DNA of 60,202 nt, filler included, from Dehalococcoidia bacterium (GCA_040882355.1; 4 parts of 4 records of this genome joined end to end with filler, not necessarily neighbours in it), one strand, 5' to 3'. Shown: positions 18,001 through 24,000, numbered from the whole stretch's first letter. Numbers: made by a program.

Positions 18001-21000
18001 TCCGAGCGAGCCGGTGCTCTACGTGCTCGAGATCAACGCGGGCCTGGTGGACGGCGCCGGCGTGCAGGTGGGTGACGCGGTAACCTTCGAGCCGGAGGTA
18101 TCGCCGGGACAGGCGTCGTAGCATAGTGAACATAACGAACGATCTCAGCCAGCGAGCGAAGCGCCTGCTCCGGTCCGCCGTTCCGTGGCTGCTCGTCGTC
18201 GCGCTCGCACTCTTCGCATCGTGCGGCGACGATGGCGGCGAGGCCGATGGCAGTGTCGCGCCAACCGCGTCGCCGGGTGGGCCGCCACTGGAGGGCAGTC
18301 TGTTCGCCAACGCGAGCTTCGAGGAGGGGGAGGCGCCCTGGGTCTCGCTGGAGTCGTGGGGCACGCAGTTCGCCGTCAGCGACGACGTCGCGCACTCAGG
18401 CGGGCATAGCGCGTTCCTCGAGCTGCGTAGCGAGGGCGCCGAAGACCAGCCGGCGCGCGTGTTCGGCGTCGTACAGGAAGTGACGCCCGACGAGTTTCCG
18501 GACGTGGTCTCCGGCTACTACTACGTCGACCGCTGGGAGCCGGGCACGCCGAAGCAGTACATGCAGTTCGTCGTGATCGTGTTCGGCGCCGACAACATTC
18601 CGGCGGAGGCGGCGCCGGCGACGAATCACCAGATCCGCTACATTCTGGCCGGCGTCGACTCGCCGCCGATCGCGATCACCAACGCTCGTTTCGTCATGGT
18701 CGGCACCGGCGCACCGAAGCAGGGCGAGTGGGTGCGCTTCGAGCGCAACATCCGAGAGGACTTCGAACAGCTCTGGGGCTCGGTGCCGGAGGGGCACGAC
18801 TTCATCCGCATCCTTTTCGAGGCGCGCTGGGACGAGCGCGCTCCGGACGCGCCGGCGTCCGCGGCGGACGTGTACTACGACGATCTGTACGCGGGGCCCG
18901 CGCCCGTGACGCCGTAGCCGAGCCCCTTCCAACAGGCTGAAGCCTGTCCCGCAGAAGGCAGAGGTCGACCGCCGGCTGGAGTCGGCGGCATGCAGGCGAG
19001 GCTTCCAGCCTCGCCTATGGTGAGTGCGGGGCGGAACGGCGAGAACCCGTCGCGCAGGCGAGGCGCTAGCCCGTGGCCCCGCCGGCGGGCGCTACGTCGA
19101 CCGGCACGGTCGCCTCGTCGGCCCCCGCGCTGGCTGTGAGCTGCCAGCTCCCGGCCTGCGGGAAGACGAGGTTGACGACGTAGTAGCTACCGGCGTCGTC
19201 CTCGCCGGTGGGAGTCGCGCGCCGGGCCTCGAATTCGACCGACGCGCCGCCTCGCTCCGCTCTCAGCGGAAGCGATTCCTGCTGATAGCCGTTCGTGACG
19301 CGGAGGACGAGCTTGTAGGACTGGTCCGTTTGCACCGACGCGAACTGGTCGCTCGTGCGCCAGAAGATGGGGTCTTCGCCCGTCTCGTACGGCAGGTCGA
19401 GCGAGTTGCCGGACGTCGGGTCTGTCTCGCTTGCCGTTGGCGAGACGATGGTGACGCTGACCGCTTCGGTCGGCGTCACCGCGGCCTCGCTGGCTGGCTC
19501 GTGATCGTCGCACGCGACGGCGACCGTGAGGGCGAGGAGCGTCGCGGCGAGCAGGAGAGCGGTCCGTATCTGCGATCTCATCGTCTCAGTATAACGCCGG
19601 GTTTTACGAGAGGAGCGGAGCGACGAGGAGGTAGGCGGCGAACGCGCCGAGGGCGACTCCGGTCACCTGGTGGACGTGCGGCGCGAGTGCGATCAGCCGC
19701 TGGTTGAGGTCCGCGACGTCGCCGGGCTCTTTGCAGTTGGCGCTGCTGTAGATCGCGAAGGCGCGTGTTGCGCCGTAGACCAGGCCGGCGAGCGCTCCGT
19801 AGACGACGTTGCCGGAGACGAAGAGCCAGGCGAGCATGATCGGGAAGCTGGCGTAGGGCACCCTTGTGAAGACGCCGAAGCCGACGGTCCCGCCGAAGAT
19901 GACCGCGCTCCGATAAAACGTGCCGTGCACCCAGCTCGCGGGGACCTGCCAGTCGCGGCCGGGTACCGGCAGGCGCAGGAAGCCAAGCTCGTGGGCGGCG
20001 TAGACGAGCGAGACAGCGCCCAGCGCGATCGCGAGCGGTACCGTCGCGTCCGGCCAGAGGGCCTCGACGCCCCAGCCGGCTGTCGCGACGAGGACGCCGG
20101 TGGTCATGCCCGCCACCGTCATCGCGAGGGCGTAGACGGTTGCGCGCTGCAGCCAGCGCCGGTAGGTCTGAGTCCCTTCCACGAAGGGAGCGATCGTAAA
20201 GATCGCGTTGTGGCCTCAGGCGCTGCAGGTCTGGGCCAGGCCGACCAGCGCGGCAAGGGCGAGGCCGAGGCCGGCGGCGCCCGCCTCCCACGACAGTCCG
20301 GCTGTCGCGGCGGCGAGCGCCAGGCCCAGCGCCAGCCCGAGCGCGAGCAAGAGGGCGTGCCTGGCGTTGGTGAGCTGTTCCGCTCGGATCATAGTCTCAG
20401 TGTAGCCGTTCCGGCGAGGCCGTGGCCCCGCTGCTACGGCTCCTCAGCCCGGGCAGAACTGGGGGTTGTTGTGGTAGTCGCTGCCGCAGCCGCAGATGCC
20501 TTCCGGGCAGACGCAGTCGCAGCAGGTGACGGTGTCCGTCACCCAACAGCCGGAGGCGTAACCGACCCAGAACATGCAGGGCTTGGCGCAGACGCCGCCG
20601 GAGCTACAGCGTTCGCAGGCGCAGGGCAGGCTCGGGAAATCGCAGACGGTGGGAAAGCTGCCGGCGCTGGCCGGGCGCCCCTGCGTCGCCACGCCCGCCG
20701 CGGCGCCGAGGAGAGCGCCCATCGCCGTCTGCGCGCCGCGCCCGAATAGGCCGCGACGGGTCGTGTGGCGGGCGAGGCCTTCGCTAGCGCGTTGGAGCAG
20801 GCTCACGGGCGAACACTGATTGCTCGCGCCCTACGGGCAGAACAGGGGGTTGTTGTGGTAGTCGCCTCCACAGCCGCACCAGCCGTCCCCCGCGACCGCG
20901 GGACAGACGCAGTCGCAGCAGGTGACGAGAGCATTCAGGTCTGTGTTGAACACGACCCAGCAACCGGAGGCATAGTACTCGGTCAAGATCATGCATGGCT

Positions 21001-24000
21001 TCGCGCAGACGCCGCCCGAGCTGCAGTTGTTGCAGGGGCAGGGCGGACCGGGGAACTGGCAGAACGTGGTGAGTCCGGCGCTCGCCGGGTTCGTTTGGGC
21101 CAGGGAGCCTGCCGCGGCGCCGAGCAGCGCGCCGGTGGCCACCGTTACGCCCCGCCCGAACAGCCCCCGACGGCTGGTCCTGCGGGCGAGTCCCTCACTG
21201 ACGCGGCGCAGAACCTCCATCGATTACGGCTTGATGCAGTTGTGCGGGTCGTTGTGGTAATCGGTGCCGCAACCGCAGATGTCGTAGCCACCAAAGCCGT
21301 TGCAGTCGCAGTCGCAGCAGGTGACATTTCCTACGACCCAACAGCCCGAGGCGTAGTAGACCGTCATGATGATGCACGGCTTCTTGCAAACGCCGTTGTT
21401 GCAGCCGTCGCAGTGGCAGCCGGGGCCGGGAAAGGAGCAGACTGTGTTGTAGATATGCCTCGCTCCCACGCGGTCCGCCTGGGTTACCGCGCCGGCCGCG
21501 GCGCCGATCAGGGCGCCAGTCGCGACCTCCGCGCCCCGGCCGAAGAAGCCGCGGCGGCTGGTCTTGCGGGCGAGTCCCTCACTGACGCGTTGTAGTAGGT
21601 CCATGGTGCGCCTCCTCGTCTCCTAATGGCCTTCGGTTGCTACGGGCTCCCCGCCTCCGGCGGGCAGGCGGCGCGCCTTCGCGCCGTTCGTGTGATCGCC
21701 GAGCTTCGCTGCACTAAGCAGCATATCGAGATGCTGGCGGTTGTTCGCGAGGCCCTTGGCCTGGACCACGCCCTCAGCGTCGAGCATGTGGGCGAAGGGC
21801 GTGACCCGTACCTTGAACTGGTCGGGTAGCGACTCGTCCGGGTGGACGGCGACGGTGACTTCTACGGCGTTCTCCTCGGCGAAGCGCTGCGTGAGCTCGA
21901 GCTCGCCGCGGCTCAGGAAGAGCACCCGCAGGTCGCCGGCGTACTCCTGGGCGAAGGCGTTCAGGTCCGGGATGAGCGCCTTGCACGGCGCGCACGAGGG
22001 CGAGCCGAAGACCAGGAGCAGCGGCAGCCCGCGGAAGTCCGCGAGCGAGAGTCCGCGACCGTCGAGCGCCTGGACGGCGAACTCAGGGGCGGCCGTGCCC
22101 GGCGCGAGGCCGTCGCGCGCAACGCCCTGCGCGGTACCCAGGTACATCATGCCGAGCTGACGCAGCAGCAAGAAGACGACTGCGCCCTGGAGGAAGACGA
22201 TCCCCCACAGGACGATGTAGCTGATCAGCCATGGACCGCTCATGCCGTGCGCTCCATCTCGATCGTCGTCTCGTCGATGTGGGCGGTCGGGCGGTGCCCG
22301 TTGCTGCTGTGGTTGTGGCCGGTGACCTGCGTGCGCTGCGTTTGCGAGAAGATCGCGCGGAAGGCCGCGGCCTCCGGCAGCAGGATCAGCGCGTCGAAGA
22401 CGACGCCGGCGATCAGCACGACGGGGATGACTTCGCTGACCGGCGGCAGGTCGGCGCTGGAGCCAAAGAGCGCGTACTCGAGCGAGCCGAAGCGGCTGGC
22501 GCCCAGCGCGACGACGAGCGCCATGCTGGCGAAGATCAGCGATCGCAGGAGCGCCGTCGCGCCGATCGGGTCGGCCTGCACCGCGCCGAAGCAGTGGCAG
22601 TCGAGCTCGCGGCCGCGCTGAAGGTTGACGCCAATGGCGAAGGTGAAGCTGAGGAAGAGCGGCACGGCGATGCCGGCGGCGACGCCTGTGCCGAACCCGA
22701 CGAGCAACAGCACGCCGAGTGCGGTCTCGATCCAGGGCACGGCGGCCGCGAAGGGCCGGGCGAGCGTCGCGGGCAAGACCTCGTACTCGGCGACGGCCTG
22801 GCGGAAGCTCGCTCGATCGACGAGCTTCGATACGCCGGCAAGGAGCAAGACGCCCCCCAGCACCAGCCGCAAGAAGAGCTGGATGTGGGGCTGCGACAGC
22901 GCTTCGATCGGGTACGACATGATCCCTCCGCCCGCCTCGACGCCTACGCGCTCGCCGACCGGTAGCCGGTCAGGTGGCTCCCGCTTCCGGCGACCTGCAG
23001 CAGGTAGAAGCGACCGTCCTCCTCGCCGAGGGGAAGGTAGCCGGCGGCGCTGAGCTGCAGGAGCGGTAGGGCGGGGTTGGCGCCATCGAGCATGTCGGAC
23101 CAGACGGCCCGCTGCGCCGCGCCGATGACGATCTGGTTGTAGCGCACCGTCGCCGTGCGGGCGAAGGAGCGGTCGGCGGCGCGGGTGAGCGAGAGCGTGG
23201 GGCTCAGGCGCCGCGACAGGTCTTCGGTCGGGTCGAGCAGCGTGCCGGACAGGATCGAGAGCGAGGCCCACATCGGCTCGGCGCGGTCGGCGGCCAGCGC
23301 CAGGCGGTCGCCGGTCTCGCGGTCGAGCATGAGGTTGAGCATCGCGTGGGAGCCGGCGCCGTTCAGCTTGGAGGGCGTGAGCACCTCGGTGCGCAGGCCG
23401 GTGTCCGGTCGCTTCGTCAGGTCGTAGTGCTGCTTGAGCAGCCCTTCAGGGTCGAACTGGAAGCGTGGGAAGCGCCAGGCCGTGTTGTTGGAGTAGAGCA
23501 GGACCTGGGCGAGCTGGTCGCCCCCGGGGTAGTCGCGGAAGAAGAACTCCGCGCCCGCTTCCTGCACGGCCAGCGGCCGGCTGCGGATGGCGGCGGCGGC
23601 CGGCGCCCAGCAGCAGACCTCGCTCAGCTCGTGCGCGAGCCCGCTATCGCCCGCCCAACGGGCGGCATCGACGGCGCGCGTGCGCAGGCTATCGATGCTG
23701 TACGGGCCTTCGGCCGGCCCGCCTCCCGCCTGGCCACCCGCGAGCGAGCCCGCAGAAGAGGCGGCGAAGCTGCGGAGCGGTGCCATGCGGGTCAGCCCCA
23801 GGCCGACCATAGCTGCTCCCAGTGTCGTCAGGAATCCGCGTCGTGTACAGGACATGACCTAACCTCCCGCCCCCGGCTTTCGCCGGGTACGCTCCCCTAC
23901 GCTCGTGTCGGTTGCGTCTATTCTACCACCTCTGTCAAGAGAACGACATAACCGGTCTGGATGTAACCCAGGCATGGCACCCGAGCATTCGCGGCCCCTT

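Follow-up and report, generated by a model that had tools for sequence, protein, structure and literature searches.

Relatives of three methylamine dehydrogenase helper proteins encoded beside a new family of predicted exported 14-cysteine proteins in a Dehalococcoidia operon

The mau cluster for methylamine dehydrogenase (MADH) is arranged mauF-B-E-D-A-C-J-G-M-N on plasmid 1 of Paracoccus denitrificans PD1222. In the MADH light chain, two tryptophans form tryptophan tryptophylquinone, which is made by MauG. In Thermomicrobium roseum, a relative of Chloroflexota, megaplasmid NC_011961 encodes small Tat-signal Cys-rich proteins that are recognisable MauA relatives (tblastn with MauA: 32% identity, E 1e-5), one of the three being annotated as a light chain. 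According to the available parts of a preprint by Gonzalez et al. (bioRxiv 10.64898/2026.03.05.709764), E. coli DsbB can be substituted by MauE, which acts through its CXC site, and MauA is present in only 10.2% of MauE-bearing species. Candidate RiPPs proposed by decRiPPter in Streptomyces, as far as the consulted portions of that study describe them, have mauE, with or without mauD, beside small Cys-rich precursors and outside methylamine metabolism (PMC7794033).

The window analysed here, a 60,202-nucleotide stretch of DNA from Dehalococcoidia bacterium GCA_040882355.1, contains eight tightly packed genes on the minus strand (19066–23855). Since the intergenic gaps are 3–51 nt and the MauE and MauD genes overlap by 4 nt, these genes form one operon. 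The initial annotation had described a conserved MauE/MauD-like cluster at this site, and all eight ORFs were found again on the minus strand. The gene order that it had reported as kept is seen in 10 of 10 relative loci, within the reach of their contigs, but locus L009 is without the selenoprotein gene even though its contig continues. The eight-gene operon is kept in one family of Chloroflexota. Its phyletic pattern is all-or-none, as judged from the MauF-like gene, which was detected in 11 of the family's 14 genomes but in none of 46 genomes of sister families.

The MauE gene (22240–22920, minus strand) encodes a predicted DsbB-like membrane thiol oxidase. We reproduced its match to PF07291 (2.9e-29; 102.4 bits against a cut-off of 27), which is on a par with that of genuine P. 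denitrificans MauE (5.2e-29), and the two proteins are 34% identical (E 6e-11). The MauE motif, defined in the preprint sections available to us as CXC followed by F-G (bioRxiv 10.64898/2026.03.05.709764), is present as DCHCFG (C108-H-C110, then FG). This MauE is the sole PF07291 match in the genome, where searches for VKOR and DsbB found none; being the only DsbB-type oxidase found, it may also serve other proteins. The adjacent gene (21623–22243, minus strand) encodes a MauD-like thioredoxin-fold protein, whose match to TIGR02661 (2.4e-21) was likewise reproduced and, as stated in the initial annotation, falls below the curated cut-off (76.1 bits against 188.6; genuine P. denitrificans MauD scores 383.7). 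It also matches the AhpC-TSA and Redoxin families. Alignment with P. denitrificans MauD extends over the full length (189 aa, 33% identity, E 6e-25), with C84-A-P-C87 aligned to CPVC. Thus, by alignment and gene order, the protein has the N-terminal membrane anchor, the CxxC thioredoxin fold and the position between mauE and cargo that characterise MauD.

The gene at 19604–20392 (minus strand) encodes, by read-through translation, a polytopic membrane protein of 262 aa with the motif C56-S-A-U59. It has a conserved in-frame UGA (20216–20218, minus strand). The initial annotation called it a selenoprotein and gave it no name; it is a MauF homolog, not recognised before as one of the Mau helper relatives. 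Pfam and NCBIfam hold no model for MauF. Comparison with P. denitrificans MauF by hhalign gave 96.9% (E 2e-10, 152 columns) and BLASTP against annotated MauF gave E 8e-6; the proteins have the same length and share the motifs (S/T)(A/P)(C/U)G and QVP. Selenocysteine (Sec, U) is aligned with the Cys of WSPCGY in all three canonical MauF proteins, and one Chloroflexota homolog (L044) also has Cys at this position. All 8 loci retain the TGA, as does every one of the 12 strong genome matches, and the genome contains selA, selB, selD and tRNA-Sec. Directly 3' of the UGA lies a candidate SECIS (20174–20206, minus strand) of two conserved 6-bp hairpins. In the folded alignment of nine sequences, the apical loop of the second hairpin contains G-U and lies 34 nt downstream of the UGA; two-sided compensatory changes are seen at 2 of the 12 hairpin pairs, and no Rfam model matches the element. 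The conserved UGA with its flanking conservation, the Cys homologs, the hairpin and the Sec machinery together support a predicted selenoprotein. Read from the sequence by the positive-inside rule, its CxxU motif would sit where the second membrane helix meets the cytoplasm, a poor fit with a simple periplasmic isomerase. Since the gene is absent both from L009 and from a 95%-complete family genome (G401), it may be dispensable.

Between the MauD-like and MauF-like genes lie three tandem genes on the minus strand for Cys-rich paralogs of 126 aa (21224–21604), 129 aa (20831–21220) and 120 aa (20444–20806, GTG start). Our own alignment of 33 sequences contains the 14 invariant Cys reported earlier, and the motifs CAKPC, GCW, CCDCxC and CGCGxDxHN were also seen. 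The 168 homologs could be recovered at E<=1e-3 among 233 candidates; all 120 matches listed of these are named only 'hypothetical protein' and are without Pfam assignment. Searches of the Cys-rich proteins against Pfam and NCBIfam gave nothing beyond noise, in agreement with their description as a new family. Across the superfamily, W88, the only nearly invariant Trp, and D103 vary little if at all; the narrow family also has an invariant Y83 and H122, and Asp120 is invariant in addition to His122 and Asp103. The genes occur as one to three diverging tandem copies per locus. An AF2 model of paralog 2 is poor (pLDDT 55.3), and a fold search with it matched the leader helices alone.

The Cys-rich proteins are predicted Tat substrates, given the twin-arginine motif TSRRGLFGRG read from their sequence, a hydrophobic stretch, an AxA-type cleavage site and Tat machinery in the genome; TatC, noted before, was matched at 1e-61. 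Their leader and the long Tat leader found in MauA are homologous: comparison with the light-chain family gave 96.2% in hhalign (E 2e-9, 40 columns), compared with E 3e-3 and 3.7e-5 for controls against another Tat signal. No significant similarity was detected by hhalign between the mature domains (best E 0.048 versus 0.11–0.18 for reversed controls), which gave no reliable alignment. Assignment to the light-chain families PF02975/TIGR02659 by model match was rejected: PF02975 is matched by 0 of 40 superfamily members at E<=1, and the reported lack of a light chain held, with no PF02975 match in the genome at E<=10. MauG had no match in this 94%-complete genome, MauB, MauJ and amicyanin were not found, and PF06433 was also unmatched, a weak absence since the control rang nowhere. 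As in canonical clusters, the Cys-rich genes stand directly downstream of mauE-mauD in the window and in 10 related loci; mauD directly precedes the light-chain gene in 9 of 9 proteobacterial records in which the gene upstream could be read from the annotation. The earlier statement that the pair works outside any MADH context does not hold fully, as MauF is kept along with MauE and MauD, the order is D then cargo, and the cargo has a MauA-type leader.

The two outermost genes encode proteins of no known family, a predicted exported protein and a lipoprotein. The upstream one had been annotated as a 288-aa protein; its true start is 45 nt further upstream, at 23855, giving a 303-aa protein, here A303 (22944–23855, minus strand), with an invariant CCWAPAA. 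The added residues hold the consensus twin-arginine motif TRRGFL, shared by 29 of the 34 homologs in the alignment, and in each of the 7 loci with the gene the tblastn match begins at residue 1, pointing to a Tat substrate. We found 129 homologs rather than 131, and with no Pfam or NCBIfam model the protein is rightly called a new family. Identity across loci is 63–68%. Its structure model is confident and helical, with no clear PDB match, and no relation to MauB or MauJ was detected. The lipoprotein at the other end (19066–19581, minus strand; 171 aa, lipobox Cys) is conserved in nine of the ten loci, at 34–48% identity; once processed it would contain a single His and lack Cys.

A Cys-rich match in 13 of 15 other genomes of the family was confirmed; the two genomes without one are 81% and 78% complete, and the genes are in all eight family genomes (G000 included) with a completeness of 90% or more and a contamination of 5% or less. 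Their absence outside the family extends to a wider sample (0 of 299 genomes of the class). More distant Cys-rich relatives, ~26–33% identical, have a mauD-like gene directly upstream in 7 of 10 Chloroflexota loci (one a weak match) and at all three metagenome loci (a stop interrupts one of them), often with mauE and mauF-like genes bearing Sec or Cys. The MauD, MauE and MauF-like neighbours are kept among these relatives while the flanking genes are unrelated. One compact module has transposases on its flanks, and one locus adjoins FtsX-like and ABC genes. No candidate large subunit at all was found in the distant clusters.

The initial annotation proposed that MauE and MauD serve the exported Cys-rich neighbours and not MADH, a reading supported by the mauD link down to ~26–33% identity and by the MauF-like pattern. 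All functional inference here rests on homology and gene neighbourhood. On this basis, we consider it probable that the operon is a self-contained, mau-derived unit for the export and oxidative folding of small cysteine-knotted proteins of a new family, most likely by Tat export followed by MauE/MauD/MauF-dependent oxidative folding. The three paralog precursors would leave the cell through Tat by means of their extended MauA-type leader. Outside the membrane, the membrane-anchored MauD-like thioredoxin (CAPC) would join the 14 Cys into up to seven disulfides, a figure that is a mere count of Cys since the mature domain could not be modelled. MauE would then reoxidise MauD, as suggested by the DsbB-like CXC activity shown for MauE of other phyla. 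The MauF homolog may provide a third redox centre, in which Sec of CxxU takes the place of the one Cys that canonical MauF conserves; it could act as a reductase/isomerase or as a precursor-holding partner, the weakest step of the scheme. Tat-exported A303 and the lipoprotein, additions found in this bacterial family only, would probably join as working partners or anchors of the mature proteins. Our best guess, by analogy with MauA, is that a mature Cys-rich protein could serve outside the cytoplasm as a small subunit that is redox-active or binds a ligand. Folding after export is at odds with the normal transport of folded proteins by Tat, although MauA presents the same difficulty.

The leader homology and an order of A303-mauE-mauD-cargo that mirrors mauB-E-D-A raise the alternative that the Cys-rich proteins are very divergent quinoprotein dehydrogenase light chains with a Trp- or Tyr-derived cofactor, A303 replacing MauB. 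Candidate residues exist in W88 and D103 superfamily-wide and in Y83 and H122 in the narrow family, and PF02975 accounts for 11 of the 30 nearest clusters in the ESM-Atlas (score 0.96, 189 shared features); the best PDB sequence match is also a MADH light chain (3c75_L), but at a non-significant E of 0.37 and mostly through the leader. We regard this explanation as unlikely, since the mature-domain profiles do no better than reversed controls, none of 40 superfamily members matches PF02975 at E<=1, MauG and (a weak absence) PF06433 had no match in the genome, A303 is helical rather than a propeller and shows no relation to MauB or MauJ, the distant clusters have no candidate large subunit, and superfamily members have Y, W, H or Q at the position aligned to the MauA quinone Trp. 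Slightly less probable again are secreted antimicrobial or RiPP-like peptides, with A303 and/or the lipoprotein giving self-protection. The tandem, diverging copies and the one locus beside FtsX-like and ABC genes would suit such peptides, but the cluster is a vertically kept core trait of the high-quality family genomes, A303 evolves slowly, unlike typical bacteriocin loci, and the operon has no dedicated exporter or protease. The available decRiPPter material does propose Streptomyces mauE/mauD clusters with precursors of at least 8 Cys as candidate RiPP classes, but those precursors, 57–66 aa long and without a twin-arginine leader in the S2 table, belong to a different family (PMC7794033).

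It is improbable that MauE and MauD are general disulfide machinery with the Cys-rich genes as ordinary clients, adjacent by chance. The sole MauE of a genome in which DsbB and VKOR were not found would fit this, as would its description as a generalist oxidase in the accessible preprint text (bioRxiv 10.64898/2026.03.05.709764). Against it, the genes are passed on as a complete set (none of 14 genomes from one sister family of the order has a MauE match, and none of 46 from sister families has the MauF-like gene), distant cargo relatives bring their own mauD, mauE and mauF-like genes in compact modules, one of them transposase-flanked, and the cargo leader resembles that of MauA. The least probable alternative is a metal-binding domain (Fe-S, Cu or Zn) that acquires its metal in the cytoplasm, which would explain the use of Tat; Tat substrates are frequently cofactor proteins. 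The 14 Cys with invariant His122 and Asp103/Asp120 could provide ligands, and the C-terminal C-P presumably resembles ferredoxin motifs. But no ferredoxin, metallothionein or other metal-binding family was matched at E<=1, and the obligate oxidising MauE/MauD pair argues for disulfides, which MauA, with the same kind of leader, carries.

The proposed export and oxidative folding operon, in which relatives of three MADH helpers stand beside a new family of predicted exported 14-Cys proteins, compares with the known systems as follows. The Streptomyces candidates share its mauE/mauD and Cys-rich neighbours outside methylamine metabolism, but the consulted parts of that work describe no MauF, selenoprotein or A303 (PMC7794033). 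With the MauE of the preprint, the protein here shares the CXC-F-G motif (C108-H-C110-F-G) and its use in a genome without MauA; the preprint, in its available parts, views MauE as a generalist and covers neither MauF nor a dedicated cargo, whereas MauE here is inherited within a cargo-specific module (bioRxiv 10.64898/2026.03.05.709764). The T. roseum proteins are arranged in a tandem-like manner, as here, but adjoin ~400-aa hypothetical proteins unrelated to A303. Compared with the mau cluster itself, MauB, MauG, MauJ, amicyanin and PF02975 were not found (nor, weakly, PF06433), the cargo has one to three copies, the mauF-like gene follows the cargo and encodes Sec, and the mature domain of ~75–80 aa with 14 Cys is not detectably similar to that of MauA (~130 aa, 12 Cys). 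In common with it, the operon encodes MauF, MauE and MauD homologs, and mauE-mauD is immediately followed by a gene for a small exported Cys-rich protein, whose long Tat leader includes a conserved helix ahead of the twin arginine. The homologs of F, E and D together with the MauA-style leader therefore point to a derived mau-type cluster carrying a new cargo.

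On the second contig of the window (G000:C58), eight ORFs in the same direction fill positions 19066–23855 of the minus strand, with intergenic gaps of 3–51 nt and a 4-nt overlap in one gene pair. The first gene (22944–23855) encodes a Tat-signal protein, designated A303, and is followed by genes for MauE (22240–22920), a MauD-like protein (21623–22243), three tandem Cys-rich paralogs (21224–21604, 20831–21220 and 20444–20806), a MauF-like membrane protein with an in-frame TGA (19604–20392) and a lipoprotein (19066–19581) for which no family match was found. The matches on which the initial annotation had named MauE (PF07291, 2.9e-29) and the MauD-like protein (TIGR02661, 2.4e-21) were reproduced, the latter lying, at 76 bits, below the cut-off of 188.6. 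As had also been reported, TatC is present in the genome, and PF02975, the methylamine dehydrogenase light chain (MauA), has no match in it. A303 had been described as a protein of 288 aa; its true start is 45 nt further upstream, giving 303 aa, and the residues thereby added form a consensus Tat motif, TRRGFL(K/T), found in 29 of 34 aligned homologs. This start is kept at the DNA level in all seven loci holding the gene.

The genes on either side of the operon (DUF192, a DUF3047-like protein, an alpha/beta hydrolase and DUF7065/7064) are unrelated to it, and a scan for promoters and terminators gave nothing exceeding shuffled expectation. The sole Rfam match, to the c-di-GMP-I-GGC riboswitch model at 23807–23901 on the minus strand, spans the A303 start and is most likely due to chance (18.2 bits versus a gathering score of 59, E = 0.98). 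The window consists of four contigs placed end to end; N runs occupy positions 16644–16743, 32880–32979 and 46571–46670, and genes across these are not physically linked.

Gene order, previously said to be conserved among relatives, is kept in 10 of 10 related loci to the extent of each contig, with 1–3 Cys-rich gene copies per locus; the exception is L009, which is without the MauF-like gene though its contig runs on. The 168 homologs of the Cys-rich proteins were recovered again, unnamed and without a Pfam domain among the matches listed, and the 14 invariant Cys were seen in an alignment of 33 sequences. The distribution given for these genes also held up: of 15 further family genomes, 13 carry them (the two without them are 81% and 78% complete), against none of 299 genomes outside the family, a sample of the class. 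Within the order, 11 of 14 genomes of the family gave a MauF-like gene and none of the 46 from sister families did; strong MauE matches track this pattern with a few exceptions, which fall in two sister families.

When the TGA is read as Sec, the MauF-like gene encodes a polytopic membrane protein of 262 aa with the motif C-S-A-U. The in-frame TGA is flanked on both sides by conserved protein in all eight loci compared, and it is likewise present in 12 of 12 strong matches from family genomes. The genome carries the Sec machinery (selA, selB, selD and tRNA-Sec), and two conserved hairpins lie 3' of the UGA, the second with a G-U-containing loop 34 nt downstream; for two of the base pairs in these hairpins, other loci show substitutions of both partners. 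All 120 database homologs listed are just 161–198 aa long, their start having been called after the UGA. The predicted selenoprotein is mis-annotated everywhere we checked, and gene callers miss the family systematically.

No Pfam or NCBIfam model matches the MauF-like protein, and the same holds for genuine MauF of Paracoccus denitrificans. BLASTP against MauF gave an E-value of 8e-6, at equal position and between proteins of equal length, and hhalign of the MauF-like profile against the MauF sequence gave 96.9% over 152 columns (E = 2e-10). In three canonical MauF proteins (Paracoccus, Indioceanicola and Methylobacterium), Sec aligns on the Cys of WSPCGY, and a QVP motif is common to all of them and the MauF-like protein. 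These alignments identify the predicted selenoprotein of the operon as a MauF homolog. More distant Chloroflexota homologs have, at the same position, either TGA (L042 and L048) or a Cys codon (L044), and this natural Sec/Cys exchange marks the residue as redox-active. To our knowledge, no biochemical function has been assigned to MauF; neither a function nor a MauF selenoprotein was found in the literature covered, subscription journals excluded. Three family genomes also encode, elsewhere, a second, distant MauF-like paralog whose gene has no in-frame stop (G403:C127:7046–7717, G402:C73:1359–2033 and G414:C162:2529–3203; E = 3e-11 to 3e-10). One family lineage (L009 and G401, perhaps the same genome) has no MauF-like gene and retains A303, MauE, MauD, two Cys-rich genes and the lipoprotein.

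Canonical clusters have the order mauF-B-E-D-A or B-E-D-A, and in every annotated record examined the light-chain gene is directly preceded by mauD. A search of 400 other Chloroflexota genomes detected distant members of the Cys-rich superfamily in 8. Among the 10 loci around such members, two of them cut by contig ends, a mauD-like gene lies directly upstream of the cargo in seven (one a weak match), mauE is present in six and a mauF-like gene in four; one locus, L050, has mauE and no mauD. Their wider flanks consist of unrelated housekeeping genes or transposases. A query alignment of six sequences recovered three metagenome loci of another superfamily branch, each with a mauD-like gene 12 nt upstream of the cargo, intact in two and stop-interrupted in L057, where a mauF-like gene lies downstream. 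Since A303 and the lipoprotein occur in none of the distant clusters, the conserved core comes down to the cargo and MauD, in most cases accompanied by MauE and MauF.

Some of these loci have features of their own. L044 (G115:C73) holds the MauF-like gene in its Cys form next to genes for MauE, MauD and a Cys-rich protein, all within one compact module. On its flanks lie DDE transposases and a replication-relaxation protein, an arrangement suggesting that the module can move. The distant Cys-rich member of L050 (5447–5785) has an internal TAA and adjoins an 889-aa FtsX-like permease, MauE, a PadR regulator and an ABC ATPase. In L057, the mauD-like gene (4576–4854) is broken by a non-TGA stop with its upstream part out of frame, and is either a decaying copy or the product of a sequencing error.

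A full-library HMM search with the Cys-rich family returned 61 representative clusters at E ≤ 1e-3 among 1.84 billion proteins. The distant relatives have in common an N-terminal region, ExLAR..RR.FL, 11–12 of the Cys, GCW and CCDC. None of 40 superfamily members matches PF02975, and in a profile search of PDB sequences the light-chain precursor 3c75_L ranked first without being significant (E = 0.37). Light chains were then represented by those of annotated plasmids from P. denitrificans and five other proteobacteria together with three MauA-like genes of Thermomicrobium roseum. Profile–profile comparison of the superfamily with this set gave 96.2% (E = 2e-9), confined to the first 40 columns, which correspond to the leader. 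Control comparisons with the unrelated Tat signal of A303 gave weaker E-values of 3e-3 and 3.7e-5, so that the similarity exceeds that of a generic twin-arginine signal, if not overwhelmingly, and the cargo leader appears homologous to that of MauA. For mature domains aligned by hhalign without the leader (local, global and low-mact), the best E-value was 0.048, no better than the 0.11–0.18 of reversed controls, and we therefore claim homology for the leader alone.

The T. roseum genes lie on a megaplasmid (L019, NC_011961), at 8124–8540, 12001–12420 and 12720–13172, and one of them is annotated. Each of these Tat-signal light-chain genes adjoins a hypothetical protein of ~400 aa, with a 201-aa hydrophobic ORF between them, and together they may represent an unstudied amine-dehydrogenase-like system.

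A303 has a confident predicted structure with no clear structural relative. It was rejected as a relative of MauJ (probability 0.2%), of MauB (14% over 19 columns) and of the 402-aa neighbor protein of T. roseum (0.2%). A predicted complex of A303 (residues 44–303) with Cys-rich paralog 2 (residues 50–129) scored 0.01, the paralog's own fold being uncertain, and so speaks neither for nor against an interaction.

Beyond the homologies, the gene order, the co-inheritance and the exchange of Sec for Cys described above, we propose a model in which the Cys-rich precursors would leave the cell via Tat, MauD (CAPC) would oxidize them and MauE would in turn reoxidize MauD. A preprint reports that MauE from two other phyla substitutes for DsbB in E. 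coli via its CXC site and that MauA occurs in just 10.2% of MauE-bearing species (10.64898/2026.03.05.709764); MauE of the window carries C-H-C-F-G. MauF might supply a third redox step, the least certain of the four, and one lineage lacks its gene. Judging from charges and hydrophobic stretches in the sequence, we tentatively place the CxxU motif on the cytoplasmic side of the membrane, at that end of the second helix, in which case MauF may engage the precursor ahead of export or in the course of it, instead of working as a periplasmic isomerase.

Other explanations have to be weighed against this maturation pathway. The operon could hold a general Dsb system with neighboring clients. The MauD/E/F–cargo association is old and specific. 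The cargo could instead be a new quinoprotein-like subunit. Besides the leader, language-model features bring it close to light chains, with PF02975 in 11 of the 30 nearest clusters (score 0.96), which we regard as a lead and no proof; in the distant loci, no propeller protein, cytochrome or cupredoxin recurs. It seems improbable to us that the Cys-rich proteins are a miniature, so far unseen tryptophylquinone light-chain branch whose redox cofactor, also protein-derived but of another kind, is built on the near-invariant Cys87-Trp88, on the CCDC motif or on the aromatic residue 83 and arises without MauG, with A303 and the MauF homolog's Sec taking part in its formation. Were this so, the proteins would represent a new class of quinoprotein-like enzymes outside the cytoplasm, and MauF would gain its long-missing chemistry. 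Finally, the 14-Cys proteins might be metal-binding proteins or antimicrobial peptides.

In Streptomyces, candidate RiPP clusters combine mauE/mauD with Cys-rich precursors (PMC7794033); these precursors are 57–66 aa long and without a twin arginine, unlike the Tat-signal cargo found here. A tblastn search of plasmids with MauE of the window gave only three weak Streptomyces matches, and the one examined, a MauE/DoxX fusion of 510 aa, has unrelated surroundings. The literature outside subscription journals yielded nothing on the Cys-rich family and no case of a MauA-type leader on another cargo. The MauF/E/D trio and the MauA-type leader appear to be a portable unit that evolution has joined to a different cargo, which lends support to a role of the long MauA leader in recognition by the trio. 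For characterization, this leaves a compact 14-Cys exported fold and A303, both encoded by core genes of an uncultured Chloroflexota family. Compared with known systems, the maturation machinery is familiar; what is new is its cargo, the selenoprotein form of MauF and a protein without a clear structural relative.
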